DNA from: Chitinophagaceae bacterium
Lineage (GTDB): Bacteria > Bacteroidota > Bacteroidia > Chitinophagales > Chitinophagaceae
Assembly: GCA_044353325.1 (NCBI GenBank)
Contig: JBILCF010000008.1
Location: forward strand, 1 to 30,326
Length of the DNA stretch: 30,326 nt
Reading direction: 5' to 3'
In this document: one piece after another, positions 9,771 through 29,520 of the stretch
Numbering within the stretch: position 1 is the stretch's first letter
Layout: each line of letters starts with the position of its first letter
The notes under the pieces: generated by a model
Seen by the model: only the letters and a program-made list of their open reading frames with translations
The model's database searches: none
What the model was told of the DNA's origin: nothing
Position numbers and translations under genes: made by a program

Positions 9771-9813
9771 ATGTTTGAATCACGGATGATGATGATGACA
9801 CGGATTGCACTGA
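9771..9813. repeat. Inverted repeat arm A-left
   Basis: The reverse complement of ATGTTTGAATCACGGATGATGATGATGACACGGATTGCACTGA matches 10258-10300. Confidence 0.85.
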
Positions 9814-9830
9814 TTTTGATAAATTCATTT

Positions 9831-10205
9831 TCATAATACTAAACGTTTAAATTGTAAACTTTTACTACCAAAGTTAATTAATAATCCAACTTCTATTTTA
9901 TATGCTCGTAAATAATTTAATAGTTGTGCAGTATGCACTTCTTCCATATTTATTATTGCTTTTAATTCAACCAGTACTTTGCCCTCTACCAAAAAATCTG
10001 CTCGACGTGTTCCTATCGGCTCTGTCAGTTCTTTGTAATAAATAGGCTGTTCTATTTCTCTTGAAAATGATAGTCCCTTTTTACTCATTTCGAATGCTAA
10101 GGCTCTTTGATATATAACCTCTTGGAAGCCATTTCCTAAAAAAGAATGGACTTCAAATGATGCACCTATAATCTTTTCTGTAATATCTTTATGTTTTAGT
10201 TCCAT
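9831..10205 (-). CDS. GxxExxY protein (PD-(D/E)XK nuclease fold, PDDEXK_3 / TIGR04256-like)
   Basis: 124 aa with an ATG start. It has the GFQEVIY motif (GxxExxY), D...ELK nuclease-type residues (RRADFLV...VELK) and the family-typical C-terminus GLLINFG...FKRLVL. Confidence 0.85.
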   Translation of the reverse strand: MELKHKDITEKIIGASFEVHSFLGNGFQEVIYQRALAFEMSKKGLSFSREIEQPIYYKELTEPIGTRRADFLVEGKVLVELKAIINMEEVHTAQLLNYLRAYKIEVGLLINFGSKSLQFKRLVL

Positions 10206-10257
10206 TAGCTCAAAATGTATTCTTTATAATCTTAGCATTCATATAAATCCGTGTAAC

Positions 10258-10300
10258 TCAGTGCAATCCGTGTCATCTTCAAAATCTGTGATTCAGACAT
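10258..10300. repeat. Inverted repeat arm A-right
   Basis: TCAGTGCAATCCGTGTCATCTTCAAAATCTGTGATTCAGACAT. An extra AATCCGTGT word sits just inside, at 10247-10255. Confidence 0.85.
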
Positions 10301-24800: not shown

Positions 24801-25679
24801 TTAATATTTCGCTCCACTTACACCAATATTTTCTATTGGGTGCCAAGTCGTTTTAATTTCTTGCAAATCCATAATCAAGTATGGATTTTCATTTTCAGCT
24901 TTTGTCCAGTCTTTTTGCCACATAAAACTACGCTTTACATTTAAAGATGAAAGCTCAGCAATTGTCTTTGCTTCTTCCATATTTTCTCTGCAATAAACTA
25001 TAGCATTTACATCCATGTGCGATGCAAAATGTGTATGCAATTCTTTACTTTTTCCTGTTAAAATATTGACAACACCGCCCGGCAAATCAGATGTAGCTAA
25101 TACCTCTGCAAAGGTTATACTACACAATGGTTTTGTTTCTGATGCTAAAACCACACATGTATTACCACCTGCAATGACAGGCATGATAACAGAAACCAAT
25201 CCTAACAATGAAGAATGTTCATCTGCTATTACACTGACAACGCCAGTTGGTTCGGGTACAGAAAAATTGAAATGAGATGTAGCCACTGGGTTTACAGTTC
25301 CAAACAATTGCTGATACTTGTCACACCAACCACTGTAATAAACGCATCTATCAATAGCTAATCGAACTTCTTTTTCAGCACTTGCTTTCGTTGAACCTTG
25401 TATCATTAATTCTTCTATAAATTGCGCTTTTCTTCCTTCAAGCATTTCTGCTATTCTGTAAAGGATTTGTCCGCGATTAAATGCCGCACGCCCGCTCCAA
25501 CCTTCAAATGCTTTTCGTGCAGCAACTACAGCGTTGCGAAAATCTTTTCGAGAGGAAAGGCACATGTTTGCAATAACCTCTTTCTTATTATTTTCCAATT
25601 TATAAAATCGACCACTTTCAGTTCGAGGGAAAGCTCCACCGATGTATAGTTTGTATGTTTTTAAAATTTCTAATTGCAT
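24801..25679 (-). CDS. Truncated aldehyde dehydrogenase family paralog (NAD-binding portion only; no catalytic Cys/Glu motifs seen)
   Basis: 292 aa. The N-terminus is ALDH-like (YKLYIGG..., W....A..R..IL.R.AE) and a GGVVNILTG segment is present, but there is no ELGGK or GQxC motif. It ends 3 nt from the parC stop. Confidence 0.7.
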   Translation of the reverse strand: MQLEILKTYKLYIGGAFPRTESGRFYKLENNKKEVIANMCLSSRKDFRNAVVAARKAFEGWSGRAAFNRGQILYRIAEMLEGRKAQFIEELMIQGSTKASAEKEVRLAIDRCVYYSGWCDKYQQLFGTVNPVATSHFNFSVPEPTGVVSVIADEHSSLLGLVSVIMPVIAGGNTCVVLASETKPLCSITFAEVLATSDLPGGVVNILTGKSKELHTHFASHMDVNAIVYCRENMEEAKTIAELSSLNVKRSFMWQKDWTKAENENPYLIMDLQEIKTTWHPIENIGVSGAKY

Positions 25680-25690
25680 AGTTTTTATTT

Positions 25691-25778
25691 TTTACCACAG
25701 AGATACCAGAGTTAATATACAGAGTTATCTGAGGATTTATTTTTTATTTAAAGAGGTTTTTGAGAGTTAATTGAGACA
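25691..25778. repeat. Inverted repeat arm B-left (overlaps the 3' end of the GxxExxY ORF)
   Basis: TTTACCACAGAGATACCAGAGTTAATATACAGAG...TTTTTGAGAGTTAATTGAGACA aligns with the reverse complement of the tandem unit (TTAACCACAGAGAAAGCAGAGGCTAATCACAGAG...TTTTTCAGAGTTAAATGAGAGA). That is about 24/34 and 19/22 matches in the two segments I aligned by hand. Confidence 0.7.
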
Positions 25779-26170
25779 TAGTTTAAATCTTTATAAAATT
25801 TATTAATTAATCTTTTAATTCCATTTTTCAAGAGTGGAACATTAAAATTAATTAATAGTCCAATTTTATTATTATTTAATTTTAAATAAGTTAATAATTG
25901 AGCAATATGAACATCATTAAATTCTTCTATAGTTTTTAATTCTACAATTATTTTATCTTCAACTAATAAATCAATTTTATGACCTACATCTAACTTTATT
26001 TCTTCATAGATTAACGGTAATGATTTTTGTCTTTCTACTTTTAATCCTAGTTTATTTAATTCATAAAATAAACAAGCTTCATAACTTGATTCTAATAAAC
26101 CTGGACCAAGTGCAGAATGGACTTTTATAGCACATCCAATTATTAATTCTGTCAGTTCATTTTCTTGCAT
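25748..26170 (-). CDS. GxxExxY protein (PD-(D/E)XK fold)
   Basis: 140 aa with an ATG start. It has GLLESSY (GxxExxY), IDLLV...VELK and GLLINF...GIKRLIN. The last ~17 aa (KFYKDLNYVSINSQKPL) are read from the flanking repeat arm. Confidence 0.85.
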   Translation of the reverse strand: MQENELTELIIGCAIKVHSALGPGLLESSYEACLFYELNKLGLKVERQKSLPLIYEEIKLDVGHKIDLLVEDKIIVELKTIEEFNDVHIAQLLTYLKLNNNKIGLLINFNVPLLKNGIKRLINKFYKDLNYVSINSQKPL

Positions 26171-26267
26171 TTCGTTTGTTATTTTTTACATCAAACTTAA
26201 CCTCTATTTTCTCTAATTTCTCTCAATATTTCAATACGTTTCCTATGTGTCAGAACTCCGTTCTCTT

Positions 26268-26520
26268 TGTGGTTAATAAATCTTTGATTTTTCTCATTTA
26301 ACTCTGAAATATTTTTTGTTTTCTCTGTAATTAGCTTCTGCTTTCTCTGTGGTTAACAAATCTTTGATTTCTCTCATTTAACTCTGAAAAATTTAACTTT
26401 GTTTTCTCTGTGATTAACCTCTGCTTTCTTTGTGGTTAACAAATCTTTGATTTCTCTCATTTAACTCTGAAAAATTTAACTTTGTTCTCTCTGTGATTAG
26501 CCTCTGCTTTCTCTGTGGTC
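26268..26520. repeat. Tandem repeat, about 3.1 copies of an 80-83 bp unit
   Basis: Copies start at 26268, 26348, 26431 and 26514 (the last is partial). Copies 2 and 3 are identical at 80/83 positions. The unit contains sub-words TCTCTGTGGTTAA, TCTCTGTGATTA and TCATTTAACTCTGAAA. More degenerate material lies at about 26200-26267. Confidence 0.9.
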
Positions 26521-26527
26521 AATCAAA

Positions 26528-27946
26528 CTAGAATTTCACATATGGCAATAACCCATGTACACCTCCTTCTCTTCCAAATCCACTTTCTTTGTAACCACCA
26601 AATGGAGAAGTTGGATCAAATTTATTGTAGGTATTTGCCCAAATTACACCTGCTCTCAATTTAGTCGTTAAGTTGAAAATTTTACTGCCTTTATCCGTCC
26701 ACACACCAGCACTTAAACCATATGGAATATTATTTGCTTTTTCTATGACTTCTTCTATAGTTCTAAAAGTTTGAATCGTTAAAACAGGACCGAAAATTTC
26801 TTCTTTCACAATTCGATGGCTTTGTGAAGTCCCTATAAATAACGTTGGTTTGCAGAAAAATCCATTCAATGGAATTGCACATTCCGGTTGAAATATTTCA
26901 GCGCCTTCTTTTTGTCCAAGTTTGATGTAATGGTTTATTTTATCTAATTGTTCTTTACTATTGATAGCACCTATGTCTGTATTTTTATCCATAGGATCGC
27001 CCACTATCAAAGTCTTCATTCTATCTTTCAATTTCTTGATGACTTTTTCAGCTACATTTTCTTGAATAAATAATCTTGAACCTGCACAACATACATGACC
27101 TTGATTAAAGAAAATGCCATTTACAATTCCTTCTATAGCTTGATCAATTGGCGCATCATCAAAAATAATATTGGCCGCTTTTCCTCCTAATTCTAAAGTT
27201 ACTTTTTTAGTGGTTCCTGCAACTGCCTTTTGAATATATTTTCCAACAGGCGTACTTCCTGTAAAGGCAATTTTATTGACTTGTGGATGATTTACCAAAG
27301 CAGCACCACAATCTCCAAATCCTGTTACTATATTTACAACACCATCAGGCAAACCACTTTCTTGAATAATTTCTGCTAATTTCAAAGCTGTTAATGGTGT
27401 GCTTTCAGCAGGTTTTAAAACAACAGTGTTTCCTGTTGCCAATGCTGGTGCTAATTTCCAAGCAGCCATCAACAAGGGGAAATTCCAAGGAATAATTTGA
27501 CCCGCTACACCAATTGGTTTTGGATTTCTATTTGGAAAAGCATATTCTAATTTATCAGCCCAACCTGCATAATAGAAAAAATGATTAGCAGCTAAAGGCA
27601 CATCAATATCTCTACTTTCACGAATCGATTTTCCACCATTCATAGTTTCAATGACAGCAAATTCTCTTGCTCGTTCTTGAATCATTCGTGCAATTCTATA
27701 AATATATTTTGCTCGTTCTTTTGGATCTGTTTTGCTCCATGATTCAAATGCTTTATTGGCTGCTTTTACTGCTACATCAATATCTTTTTCATTTCCTTTT
27801 GCAACCGTTGCAATTTTTTTTCCTGTGGCAGGATTAATGGTATCGTAGTATTCCTTGCTTAATGGCTTTACAAATTTTCCATTAATGAATAAATCATATT
27901 TCGATTTTAATTGAATATGATCTGATGATTCTGGAGCTGGAGCCAT
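26528..27946 (-). CDS. NAD(P)-dependent aldehyde dehydrogenase
   Basis: Catalytic motifs LELGGKA and FFNQGHVCCAGSRL, plus the NAD-binding segment GSTPVGK. I chose the start at the ATG at 27946 (MAPAPESS..., 472 aa). The track ORF extends to 28132, but only through the 39-bp tandem repeats. Confidence 0.88.
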   Translation of the reverse strand: MAPAPESSDHIQLKSKYDLFINGKFVKPLSKEYYDTINPATGKKIATVAKGNEKDIDVAVKAANKAFESWSKTDPKERAKYIYRIARMIQERAREFAVIETMNGGKSIRESRDIDVPLAANHFFYYAGWADKLEYAFPNRNPKPIGVAGQIIPWNFPLLMAAWKLAPALATGNTVVLKPAESTPLTALKLAEIIQESGLPDGVVNIVTGFGDCGAALVNHPQVNKIAFTGSTPVGKYIQKAVAGTTKKVTLELGGKAANIIFDDAPIDQAIEGIVNGIFFNQGHVCCAGSRLFIQENVAEKVIKKLKDRMKTLIVGDPMDKNTDIGAINSKEQLDKINHYIKLGQKEGAEIFQPECAIPLNGFFCKPTLFIGTSQSHRIVKEEIFGPVLTIQTFRTIEEVIEKANNIPYGLSAGVWTDKGSKIFNLTTKLRAGVIWANTYNKFDPTSPFGGYKESGFGREGGVHGLLPYVKF

Positions 27947-27971
27947 TGATGAAAATATCCCCACAGTTTTT

Positions 27972-28088
27972 TTAGCCACTGATGACTCAGATGACACAGA
28001 TGCGATACGTTTAGCCACTGATGACTTAGATGGCACAGATGCTATACGTTTAGCCACAGATGGTGGAGATTTCACAGATGTTTGACGC
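27972..28088. repeat. Tandem repeat, 3 x 39 bp
   Basis: Units at 27972-28010, 28011-28049 (36/39 identical to unit 1) and 28050-28088 (degenerate). The unit is TTAGCCACTGATGACTCAGATGACACAGATGCGATACGT. Confidence 0.9.
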
Positions 28089-28140
28089 TTTTCTTTAGTT
28101 ACTTGTTTTATTTTTGAAATTGATTTACTCATAAATATTT

Positions 28141-28569
28141 TTATAAAATGACTCTTTTAAATGTTAATTTATCTTCTCCAAAGTTGATGATTAAACCAAT
28201 AGGATTTTTTGATGCTGCTAAATAATTTATTGTTTGTTTAAAATGACTATCTATTACATCTTTTGTTGCTTTAATTTCTAAAATTATTTTATCAAAAACT
28301 ACAAAGTCTGCTCTATAACTATGTTGTAATACAATATCTTTATAATTAATTTGATAGCATTGTTCTCTGCTAAATGTAATGTTTTGTAATTGAAATTCGT
28401 GTTCTAATGCATCTTTATATACCACTTCTGCAAAGCCTCTGCCCAACTGATTATGTACCTCCATACAAGCACCAATAATTTTAAAAGTTTCTTGTTGCAA
28501 AGGAAATTTGATAGTAGAATATCCTACATATGATTCTTCAACAACATTCATATTTTCAAAACTATTCAT
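28141..28569 (-). CDS. GxxExxY protein (PD-(D/E)XK fold)
   Basis: It has GFAEVVY (GxxExxY), RADFVV...LEIK and GLIINFG...FKRVIL. I chose the ATG at 28569; the track start at 28572 is a TTG. An internal Met (MNVVEE) could also be the start. Confidence 0.85.
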   Translation of the reverse strand: MNSFENMNVVEESYVGYSTIKFPLQQETFKIIGACMEVHNQLGRGFAEVVYKDALEHEFQLQNITFSREQCYQINYKDIVLQHSYRADFVVFDKIILEIKATKDVIDSHFKQTINYLAASKNPIGLIINFGEDKLTFKRVIL

Positions 28570-28605
28570 CAATTTCTTTTTACTAAATTAAATTAATCGG
28601 CTGTT

Positions 28606-28636
28606 CATCTGTGCTATCTGAGTCATCTTTGGCTAG
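28606..28636. repeat. Inverted repeat arm C-right (overlaps the deoC stop codon)
   Basis: The reverse complement of CATCTGTGCTATCTGAGTCATCTTTGGCTAG is CTAGCCAAAGATGACTCAGATAGCACAGATG. This compares with TTAGCCACTGATGACTCAGATGACACAGATG in the 39-bp unit. Confidence 0.8.
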
Positions 28637-29520
28637 TCTTTACTTATATAATCTCCACTATAATAAACCCCCATTTTCTCTTTCCCCAATTGCAACAAAA
28701 TATCATTGGCTAGGCTACTAGCTCCAAATCGAAACCACTCATTCGTCATCCATTTTTCACCTAAAGTTTCATATAGCATGACTAAATATTGTAATGCTGA
28801 TTTTGATGTCGAAATTCCCCCAGCTGGTTTCATGCCTATCATGATACCAGTTTCATCATAATAATCTTTAATGGCTTGCAACATTACTAATGTCACTGGC
28901 ATAGTCGCAGCTGGTTGTATTTTACCTGTAGATGTTTTAATGAAATCAGCACCAGCAAAAATAGCAATATCACTTGCTTTTCGCACATTATCTAATGTCG
29001 ACAATTCGCCAGTTTCTAAAATGACTTTTAATCGAGCTACACCACATGCTTCTTTAATAGCAGCGATTTCATCATACACAAAATTATAATTTCCTGATAA
29101 AAATTCTCCCCTACTGATAACCATGTCAACTTCATCTGCACCACTATTGACTGCAATTTTTACATCTTCTAATTTTATTTTTCTCGATGAATTTCCACTA
29201 GGAAAAGCTGTGGCAACTGATGCTACTTTTACGTTTGAATTTTCTAAAGCTTTTTTGGCTGTTTTCACATGATTAGGATATACGCATACTGCCGCTACCG
29301 TTGGCAAGCCTTCAATATCGTCTGCTAAGTGCATCGCTTTGTAGCACATTTGTTTGACTTTTCCTGCGGTGTCTTTTCCTTCTAATGTAGTTAAATCAAT
29401 CATGTTTAAGGCTAATAACATGCCTTGAATTTTACTTTCTTTTTTAATACTTCGGGTATTGAACCTTGCCACTCGTTCTTCTACACCTACTTGATCTATA
29501 GTCACGTTTGAAAACTTCAT
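28633..29520 (-). CDS. deoC: Deoxyribose-phosphate aldolase (long DeoC type)
   Basis: 295 aa. It has a class I aldolase TIM barrel with the Schiff-base lysine context GADFIKTSTGK, plus VCVYP and EVDMVI segments. Confidence 0.85.
   Translation of the reverse strand: MKFSNVTIDQVGVEERVARFNTRSIKKESKIQGMLLALNMIDLTTLEGKDTAGKVKQMCYKAMHLADDIEGLPTVAAVCVYPNHVKTAKKALENSNVKVASVATAFPSGNSSRKIKLEDVKIAVNSGADEVDMVISRGEFLSGNYNFVYDEIAAIKEACGVARLKVILETGELSTLDNVRKASDIAIFAGADFIKTSTGKIQPAATMPVTLVMLQAIKDYYDETGIMIGMKPAGGISTSKSALQYLVMLYETLGEKWMTNEWFRFGASSLANDILLQLGKEKMGVYYSGDYISKD

Follow-up and report, generated by a model that had tools for sequence, protein, structure and literature searches.

Three kinds of described element resemble the locus studied here. 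The intervening sequences (IVSs) of the 23S rRNA of Coxiella burnetii and Leptospira enclose an open reading frame (ORF), and that of Coxiella has a 28-bp terminal stem, measures 428 nt and is cut by RNase III (PMC4990558). In T4-like phages, the free-standing seg and mob genes for homing endonucleases are associated with "intronless homing" (PMC2988022), and six families of homing endonuclease are known, PD-(D/E)XK among them (PMC6083498). REPtrons consist of RAYT/TnpA-REP genes flanked by inverted REP sequences (PMC8266576, PMC3337134). Here we describe cassette C, a unit found in a Chitinophagaceae bacterium, in a 30,326-nt stretch of DNA that we call the window (contig JBILCF010000008.1, positions 1 to 30,326, forward strand). 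Cassette C is an insertion-like unit in a deoC-ALDH1-ALDH2 operon (ALDH, aldehyde dehydrogenase), with a co-directional gene of the GxxExxY family between inverted arrays of 9-nt units. We call it insertion-like because the closest cassette-less relatives have no arms and because a second such unit, cassette B, is absent from two related loci, L091 and L172. Full-text literature searches returned almost nothing on the GxxExxY family, passing mentions only, and the class of cassette, a nuclease gene with inverted unit arrays, was not described in the literature searched.

A repeat search placed three tandem 39-nt copies at 27971-28009, 28010-28048 and 28049-28087 (plus strand), with 100, 92 and 72% identity to the reference copy, as proposed in the first-pass annotation of this DNA. 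Tandem Repeats Finder returned a period of 39 with 2.4 to 2.8 copies (scores 156 and 136), as well as an inner 9-nt period at 27977-28002. Each 39-bp module is a complete arm, made of three 9-nt units and a 12-nt linker. On the other side of the gene, a single arm is the reverse complement of the first 30 nt of each array copy, matching at 26 of 30 positions (87%) for copies 1 and 2 and at 23 of 30 (77%) for copy 3. The inverted arm described earlier is thereby retained at a length of 30 nt rather than 31, with coordinates that were off by 1 to 2 nt at most, and its overlap with the deoC stop codon is confirmed: the TAG at 28635-28633 forms the outermost three bases. Since the downstream modules end in GTGGCTAAA, the mirror image of the TAG-containing upstream arm end TAGCCACAGAT, TA[AG] is part of the arm consensus. 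The ungapped inverted-repeat score of cassette C is 18; in a control set of 310 random pseudo-gene flank pairs drawn from metagenome loci, no score is above 14, the median being 8 and the 99th percentile 11. In the spacer between the upstream arm and the gene, neither a sigma-70-like nor a terminator signal was prominent, in a scan for sigma-70 sites that does not cover Bacteroidota promoter types.

Table 1. Positions of cassette C, its host genes and the two other cassettes in the window.
Feature	Position	Strand	Detail
deoC (deoxyribose-phosphate aldolase), upstream host gene	28633..29520	minus	TIGR00126 E=1.4e-53, above cut-off
Upstream (single) arm	28606..28635	minus	three 9-nt units, sense UAG-CCAAAGAUGA-CUCAGAUAG-CACAGAUG; outer end TAGCC
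Spacer, upstream arm to cassette gene start	28573..28605	minus	read from sequence
Cassette gene, GxxExxY / PDDEXK_3, 142 aa	28141..28569	minus	PF13366 E=8.5e-36, TIGR04256 E=1.4e-40
ATG, first start codon of 534-aa ORF	28130..28132	minus	8 nt past cassette gene stop
Downstream arm array, 3 x 39 nt	27971..28087	minus	module = CGT-xxx-(ATCTGTGNN-type 9-nt unit x3), ending GTG GCT AAA
Terminal GTG of last module, codon 52 of long ORF	27977..27979	minus	candidate native-like ALDH1 start
ALDH1 core, downstream host gene, from ATG 27946-27944 (M63)	26528..27946	minus	PF00171 E=3.7e-165
Cassette B	25688-26563; gene 25748-26170		83-bp array, ~3.2 copies, upstream at 26235-26563; CACAGAG-type units
Cassette A	9771-10300; gene 9831-10205	minus	46-nt inverted repeat, 87% complementarity

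The ORF between the arms, which had been left unidentified, can now be named as a GxxExxY nuclease-fold gene (PF13366, TIGR04256). It starts at the ATG at 28569, with a TTG at 28572, and exceeds the family cut-offs (PF13366, 123.3 bits versus 22; TIGR04256, 138.3 bits versus 35). Both the GxxExxY motif and the D...ExK signature (D88, E98, K100) of the family are present, and G45, E48, Y51, D88, E98 and K100 are invariant in alignments of 8 and of 59 sequences. The AlphaFold2 model (pLDDT 88.9) is a minimal PD-(D/E)XK core of order alpha-beta-beta-beta-alpha-beta, the nearest PDB folds being Cas4 (SSO0001; 4ic1, 4r5q) and lambda-exonuclease/RecE, with modest TM scores of 0.45-0.5; a PDB sequence search gave zero matches. 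PADLOC and PHROGs returned weak Cas4-like or endonuclease similarities only. The proteins of such cassettes consist of a 124-143-aa nuclease core and nothing more; profile matches in the cassette are limited to the two families named, and no transposase or recombinase domain was found. The subfamily of cassette C counts 2448 homologues at E <= 1e-10. Some GxxExxY homologues (P0070, P0089 and P0104) carry the name "NADH:ubiquinone oxidoreductase" in NCBI records, probably an annotation error.

The host operon runs S13 peptidase, deoC, cassette C, ALDH1, cassette B, ALDH2. A genome scan with DeoC yielded 80 Bacteroidota loci, nearly all of which keep the order deoC-ALDH1-ALDH2. In the closest relatives (L011-L016 and L021; DeoC 78-88% identical), deoC ends in TAA and is followed by a gap of ~80-150 nt and then ALDH1, with no cassette and no arm sequence past deoC. 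The DeoC C-termini of cassette-less relatives read ..YYSNNYISKD or ..YYSKDYISID up to the stop, also ..YFSKD, and that of the window reads ..YYSGDYISKD; they are of equal length, and therefore no DeoC residue was changed by the cassette. In the alleles with a cassette (the window, L091, L171, L172, L175, L177 and L179-L186), the deoC stop is a TAG within TAGCCACAGAT (TAGCCAC), or within TAGTCACAGAT in L171.

The first-pass annotation had offered two options for the overlap, that the insertion supplied or replaced the stop or that the arm is constrained by the host gene end. The former is the better of the two. The alignment leaves the position of the final residue unaltered and shows TAA in the alleles without a cassette and TAG in those with one, and none of the closest relatives has an identical deoC 3′ end together with the arm, as would be expected of native deoC-proximal sequence. 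Among related cassettes, the stop of the upstream host gene lies 0 to 1 nt before the first CAC of the arm in 19 of 50 (TAA directly followed by CAC, TAG-C-CAC or TAA-A-CAC). These stop-in-arm cassettes represent 8 of 28 independent upstream-gene contexts, against an estimated ~1-2 if the stop could fall anywhere in a 40-nt spacer. Because the arm end doubles as the host stop across related cassettes while the DeoC C-terminus is unchanged, these comparisons support a model in which the arm supplies the deoC stop codon.

Cassette C belongs to a broader pattern. Each of the eight GxxExxY genes from the window and the genome loci is accompanied by inverted repeats specific to its cassette. Scanning metagenomes with the C subfamily gave 80 loci, 65 with full flanks, and flank complementarity lay beyond the 99th percentile of the control in 83% of these 65 (median 18 versus 8). 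The arms are arrays of 2-4 units with the core CAC-N-R-AT(T), spaced 8-10 nt apart (9 most often, then 10, then 8); per 150 nt, CAC-N-R-AT occurs 2.4 times in forward orientation upstream and 2.6 times reversed downstream, over a background of 0.10. Both neighbors are co-directional with the cassette gene in 47 of 53 cassettes, where a fraction of ~0.53 (0.73 squared) is expected, and median gaps to the neighbors are ~65-70 nt. Flanks are coding in 63 of 65 cassettes; an rRNA context for the C subfamily was rejected, as just two had non-coding flanks. Scans of viral contigs with the A and B subfamilies found two loci only, too few to compare unit sequence with protein subfamily.

How the two arms of a cassette differ from each other is informative. 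Arms match their own partner (score 16.8) better than the arms of other cassettes (10.2). Mismatches affect 42% of linker positions and 10-21% of N/R positions, versus 0-5% at A-T-T, and by type 11 are compatible with G.U pairing in the sense RNA, 29 with G.U pairing in the antisense RNA and 54 are transversions. A G.U-wobble bias, considered as a sign of sense-RNA pairing, is absent and if anything opposite. Since mismatches spare A-T-T and show no such bias, and since arms match their own partner, a base-specific reading of the short unit seems to operate besides complementarity; this points to arms that are read base by base, unlike a plain double-stranded RNA (dsRNA) stem.

These observations bear directly on the possibility of an IVS-like RNA element. 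Here the arms would pair in the polycistronic mRNA and be cut by RNase III, freeing a separate nuclease mRNA and splitting the host cistrons, and the pairing itself would be under selection. Cassette C and the 23S rRNA IVSs share a length of a few hundred nucleotides, complementary termini of ~28-30 nt, a small ORF of unknown function, a place within a transcribed host unit in the same orientation, a sporadic distribution and signs of horizontal acquisition, and the geometry is like that of the Coxiella IVS, with its terminal stem, ORF and RNase III cut. The minimum free energy and centroid folds of the 731-nt sense RNA both close the cassette by the arm pair (dG -154.6 kcal/mol, z = -4.2), with the upstream arm paired to the ALDH-proximal module; the prevalent co-directionality and the better fit of arms to their own partner agree with such an element as well. 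Of the features that define an IVS, cassette C has complementary termini enclosing the element (26/30, z = -4.2) and is not located in a 23S helix: IVSs sit in an rRNA helix, whereas cassette C lies in an mRNA operon spacer between deoC and ALDH. The IVS ORF encodes the four-helix bundle S23p, that of the cassette a PD-(D/E)XK fold. The IVS has a near-perfect stem, while cassette termini are arrays of conserved 9-10-nt units joined by poorly paired linkers, and conservation of a core motif amid mismatched linkers is unneeded for plain dsRNA recognition. The missing G.U bias in the sense RNA also argues against this explanation. The terminus of cassette C is tandemly amplified in the host frame, and RNase III excision at the stem would sever the ALDH message in its coding region, the sequence past the last module being translated. 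Rfam gave zero matches over the whole window. We regard an RNA element of this kind as unlikely, though not negligible.

The relation of the array to ALDH1 requires some care. The array lies within a 534-aa ALDH1 ORF (26528-28132, minus strand), in which it is translated as RQTSVKSPPSVAK / RIASVPSKSSVAK / RIASVSSESSVAK; the aldehyde dehydrogenase domain occupies residues 90-532. The ATG at 28132 and its 8-nt spacing are kept in L091, L171, L172, L175 and L179-L186, and L177 also has an in-frame ATG upstream of the arm units, at a different spacing. M63 as the sole start was favored initially, given that divergence between the window and L091 resumes exactly there. It was ruled out: the M63 codon is ATG in the window and L182 only and TTG in the other alleles sharing this N-terminal tail, and all 6 variants in the six codons just before it, VGIFSS, are synonymous. 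Because these variants are synonymous only, the VGIFSS codons appear to be translated, i.e., from a start upstream of M63. Farther upstream, substitutions are mostly non-synonymous in the lead (8 of 11) and the first module (11 of 13), which argues that both are unconstrained; the codons after MSKSISKIK at the start of the long ORF likewise show mostly non-synonymous change.

A second candidate start is the GTG that ends the last module. In the predicted stem it is base-paired beside the deoC UAG, so that one helix of the window RNA holds both the stop and the in-frame GUG. The sequence GTG GCT AA[AG] is in the ALDH frame across the alleles examined, and a start at GTG 27979 would give MAKKTVGIFSSMAPAPE, colinear with MSKIKKTFASYDAAPE of the cassette-less L011 as well as with the M-[ST]-K-K tails of L017 and L019. 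From these comparisons, the ATG at 28132 may serve as the start of a longer ALDH1 isoform, with GTG 27979 as an alternative start. The ALDH ORF remains open in alleles with 1 to 4 modules, at 508-540 aa. Every module variant stays in frame because the unit is 9 nt, the ATCTGTGNN units have one stop-free frame and GTG GCT AA[AG] is in the ALDH frame. The in-frame merging with ALDH that the first-pass annotation ascribed to the 39-bp period is therefore retained in alleles with 1 to 4 modules, with the 9-nt sub-unit as the deeper reason.

Alleles differ in the number of arms on both sides. Downstream there is one module in L172 and L175, two in L091, L179, L180 and L186, three in the window and L182, ~3.8 in L185 (including a short module of 30 nt) and four in L177/L178, while L171 is arranged differently. 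On the upstream side, the window, L091, L185 and L186 have one arm, and L171, L172, L175, L177, L179, L180 and L182 have two. That the amplified arm lies downstream in cassette C, opposite to cassette B, holds for the window but is not a fixed property, the upstream arm being doubled in several alleles. For the alleles with two upstream arms, a nested pairing of outer and inner copies was considered and rejected, as the inner upstream copy was no better a match to the gene-proximal downstream module. The window's contig was found in at least 10 Joint Genome Institute (JGI) metagenomes at 99.8-100% identity without indels. The copy-number polymorphism between strains envisaged earlier was thus not seen in the window's own population (10 contigs) and is present among more distant alleles, with their 1 to 4 modules.

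The cassette and its flanks have diverged to different degrees. Between the window and L091, third codon positions are 65% identical in deoC and 73% in the ALDH core, compared to 61 of 63 positions for the upstream arm and spacer (28573-28635) and 145 of 147 from the 3′ end of the gene through the array. Relative to L179, L180, L182 and L186, the 3′ half of the gene is 100% identical and the flanks 84-92%; overall, this half is 99-100% identical across lineages in which deoC and ALDH are 84-92% identical. Window and L091 differ strongly in the middle third of the gene (window 28280-28380), with ends that are 95-99% identical, a mosaic which suggests that cassette alleles or paralogues have recombined. 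Because divergence is far lower in the cassette than in its flanks, and cassette B is present or absent among relatives, the pattern fits an exchange of the cassette independent of its flanks, by a recombinational, homing-like route.

Here cassette C comes close to the phage homing genes. In both, a small nuclease gene lies precisely between conserved genes and is present or absent at the same site in relatives, and the low divergence of the cassette is as expected for spread by recombination into cassette-less alleles; exchange independent of the flanks is seen in metagenome assemblies. The two differ in that the cassette is chromosomal and bacterial, that inverted arrays at the flanks are not known to be required by homing genes and that the cassette protein is a nuclease core without a recognizable DNA-binding extension. 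Cleavage of the empty allele is putative here.

With REPtrons, the cassette shares a single gene, short inverted repeats thought to be recognized by the encoded protein and long-term residence in single copy. The enzymes differ, an HUH Y1 transposase in REPtrons versus a PD-(D/E)XK fold here. REPs are GC-rich palindromes with hundreds of dispersed solo copies, whereas the cassette units are non-palindromic, tandem, AT-rich and essentially confined to the flanks. In 0.99 Mb of related genome loci we found five weak two-unit clusters, and the window had none apart from its cassettes; REP-like or MITE-like solo arrays (miniature inverted-repeat transposable elements) were rejected as rare. Cassette C thus departs from IVSs in its location and from REPtrons in its enzyme and its repeats, and the defining cleavage of the empty allele by homing genes is putative for it; we rate it as a selfish small-gene cassette with inverted ends.

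Taken together, we lean toward cassette C being a selfish nuclease-gene cassette that spreads horizontally, with arms that act as cis-sites and in addition bring the host stop and start together. We imagine that the cassette gene would be expressed by read-through from the operon and that lineages would exchange it at the same operon spacer by homing-like recombination. As cis-sites, the unit arrays would be recognized in a base-specific way, and the most economical reader would be the protein of the cassette itself. Pairing of the arms is predicted to set the host UAG stop and the GUG start at the base of one stem, and one can envision that a ribosome terminating on deoC melts the UAG/GUG helix. 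Because the arm pairing would put both codons at one stem base, the insertion could leave translation of the host genes coupled. Tandem expansion might proceed via slipped-strand mispairing and be tolerated because it is in frame.

Several points weigh against this interpretation. The cassette-less relatives are 12-22% diverged in DeoC, and the cassette may instead have been present ancestrally and lost several times. In L177 (2501-2930) and L178 (407-846), the orthologous gene is frameshifted, being called as 114 aa with its C-terminal part in another frame, and two independent assemblies agree on this; the arms nevertheless persist there and the downstream module is four-fold, indicating that arms can outlive the gene. 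The in-frame embedding of the arm is peculiar to this lineage, as the downstream ORF covers the arm in 2 of 43 cassettes in other host contexts. Of 51 cassettes, 28 have their terminal GTG in the frame of the downstream gene, but many of these share one host context. The array is stable within its own population, at 99.8-100% identity over 10 contigs. The island of low divergence could partly reflect metagenome assemblies collapsing a shared segment. Homing alone does not explain the arms, because a homing endonuclease needs no flanking repeats. Finally, we infer nuclease activity, unit binding, homing and translational coupling alike from sequence.

A conventional transposable element, with arms as terminal inverted repeats bound by a transposase and movement by cut-and-paste or copy-and-paste, appears improbable. 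The ends of Tn7 and Mu are multi-site, and the inverted ends of cassette C, with several units like protein-binding sites, are akin to them. Cassettes are polymorphic for presence at two spacers of one operon, an insertion-like feature shared, along with inverted ends, with insertion sequences and MITEs, and the deoC/ALDH1 spacer of L017 and L019 holds a different small gene with palindromes nearby. The cassette has neither a transposase nor a recombinase domain, its sole protein being the nuclease core, and few solo unit arrays occur in ~1 Mb of related genomes. There are no near-identical copies either: the three GxxExxY genes of the window (A, B and C) encode proteins that are 35-44% identical and their arm sequences differ, which argues against recent copying. 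Comparison of filled and empty sites of cassette B revealed no clear target-site duplication.

It is about as improbable that the cassette serves its host, with the nuclease-fold protein as a regulator or a defense or repair factor and the arrays as operator sites for the operon. Repeated, helically spaced, base-specific units do resemble operator or iteron sites, and PADLOC reports weak similarities to Cas4 profiles (E about 4e-4 to 1e-2). It returned no convincing model match; moreover, the cassette is dispensable in close relatives, and the unrelated host operons (deoC/ALDH, cysD/cysN and many others) fit a passenger better than a dedicated regulator.

The idea that there is no element-level function at all, the 39-bp repeat being a low-complexity coding repeat in a disordered ALDH N-terminal tail and its complementarity to the deoC end incidental, deserves next to no credence despite the position of the array within an ORF in every allele and the Ser/Val/Ala/Lys-rich tails before the conserved APAPE motif in relatives, as it is already contradicted by the class-wide flank analysis, with inverted unit arrays in unrelated host contexts, by the mostly non-synonymous changes in lead and modules, by cassette-less relatives without the repeat and by the non-coding state of the arm elsewhere.

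The two other cassettes in the window vary in layout. Cassette A has CACGGAT/CACTGAT/CACAGAT units in its arms and is not tightly wedged, unlike B and C, with ~245-300 nt to the neighbor on each side. In cassette B, the array is inverted against a single arm at 25688-25776. Cassette B is found in the window and the L171 lineage, and in L171 its upstream array has ~5 copies of a roughly 100-bp module; the place of the cassette is taken by a 58-nt spacer in L091 and a 27-nt spacer in L172. More distant loci (L022, L046 and L115) have a 51-53% identical GxxExxY gene at the deoC/ALDH1 spacer, and L017, L137 and the L171 lineage have one at the ALDH1/ALDH2 spacer.

Small selfish genes appear to have a hot spot in the deoC/ALDH1 spacer itself. 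In L017 (7961-8635) and L019 (8023-8700), it holds another gene, of 224-225 aa with an FYHIYNH-like motif, preceded in L019 by palindromes; the single Pfam match of this gene is weak and sub-threshold, to an IS200-like Y1 transposase (E=0.002). Two cassette-less spacers contain repeats without a gene: in L014 (5782-5920) an inverted repeat, TTAATGAATTATTGAGTT ... ACTCAGCAACTCATTAA, with tandem GAGTTAGAGA units, and in L011 (7871-7965) tandem TTCAAATTA/CCAAATTA units directly before the ALDH1 ATG. Such repeats may be what remains of cassettes since lost. The "ALDH2" of the window (24801-25679, minus strand) has only 292 aa, which align with the aldehyde dehydrogenase profile in its N-terminal half alone (positions 7-211 of 461). 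Since most of the 80 Bacteroidota loci keep it at 282-292 aa beside ALDH1, "ALDH2" looks like a truncated but conserved ALDH-like protein rather than a pseudogene.

Elsewhere, a large group of cassettes (L118, L123, L125, L130 and related) precedes a conserved gene starting (M)FKLILNTIPRP. This gene apparently starts at the GTG that closes the downstream arm (GTG TTT AAA), and the gene on the upstream side has its stop at TAA-(A)-CAC; an outer 8-bp palindrome, GTTTAAAC, is present at both ends. In three lineages (L017, with a minus-strand cassette, L029 and L138), GxxExxY cassettes lie between cysD and cysN. The cysD stop of L138 is TAG-C-CAC, and both arms of the L017 cassette at this site are ~100-nt modules, present twice each.

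A bolder proposal, which we put forward tentatively and consider doubtful as a whole, is that GxxExxY cassettes form a distinct, undescribed selfish class. Their CAC-N-R-AT arrays would be recognized by their own minimal PD-(D/E)XK protein and their spread from genome to genome would be homing-like, into spacers that separate two genes of an operon, while the cost to the host would be neutralized by the stop and start supplied at a long-range stem, where a terminating ribosome unmasks the next start across a 600-nt insertion.

PF13366/TIGR04256 is a very abundant and functionally blank family, with three genes in this 30-kb window alone. For annotation, the arms create ORFs that are spurious or extended, for example peptide repeats of the SVKSxPSVAK type and the ALDH call of 534 aa, GxxExxY genes are mislabelled, and short-read assemblies may collapse the copy number of tandem arms. 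Our findings give the family a genetic anatomy: a conserved cis-motif, a strictly co-directional position embedded in operons, stop-codon embedding, arms of polymorphic length and signs of exchange independent of the host genes. They also turn a "hypothetical protein" into a set of testable hypotheses, namely, binding or cleavage of the 8-nt unit, homing and long-range translational coupling.

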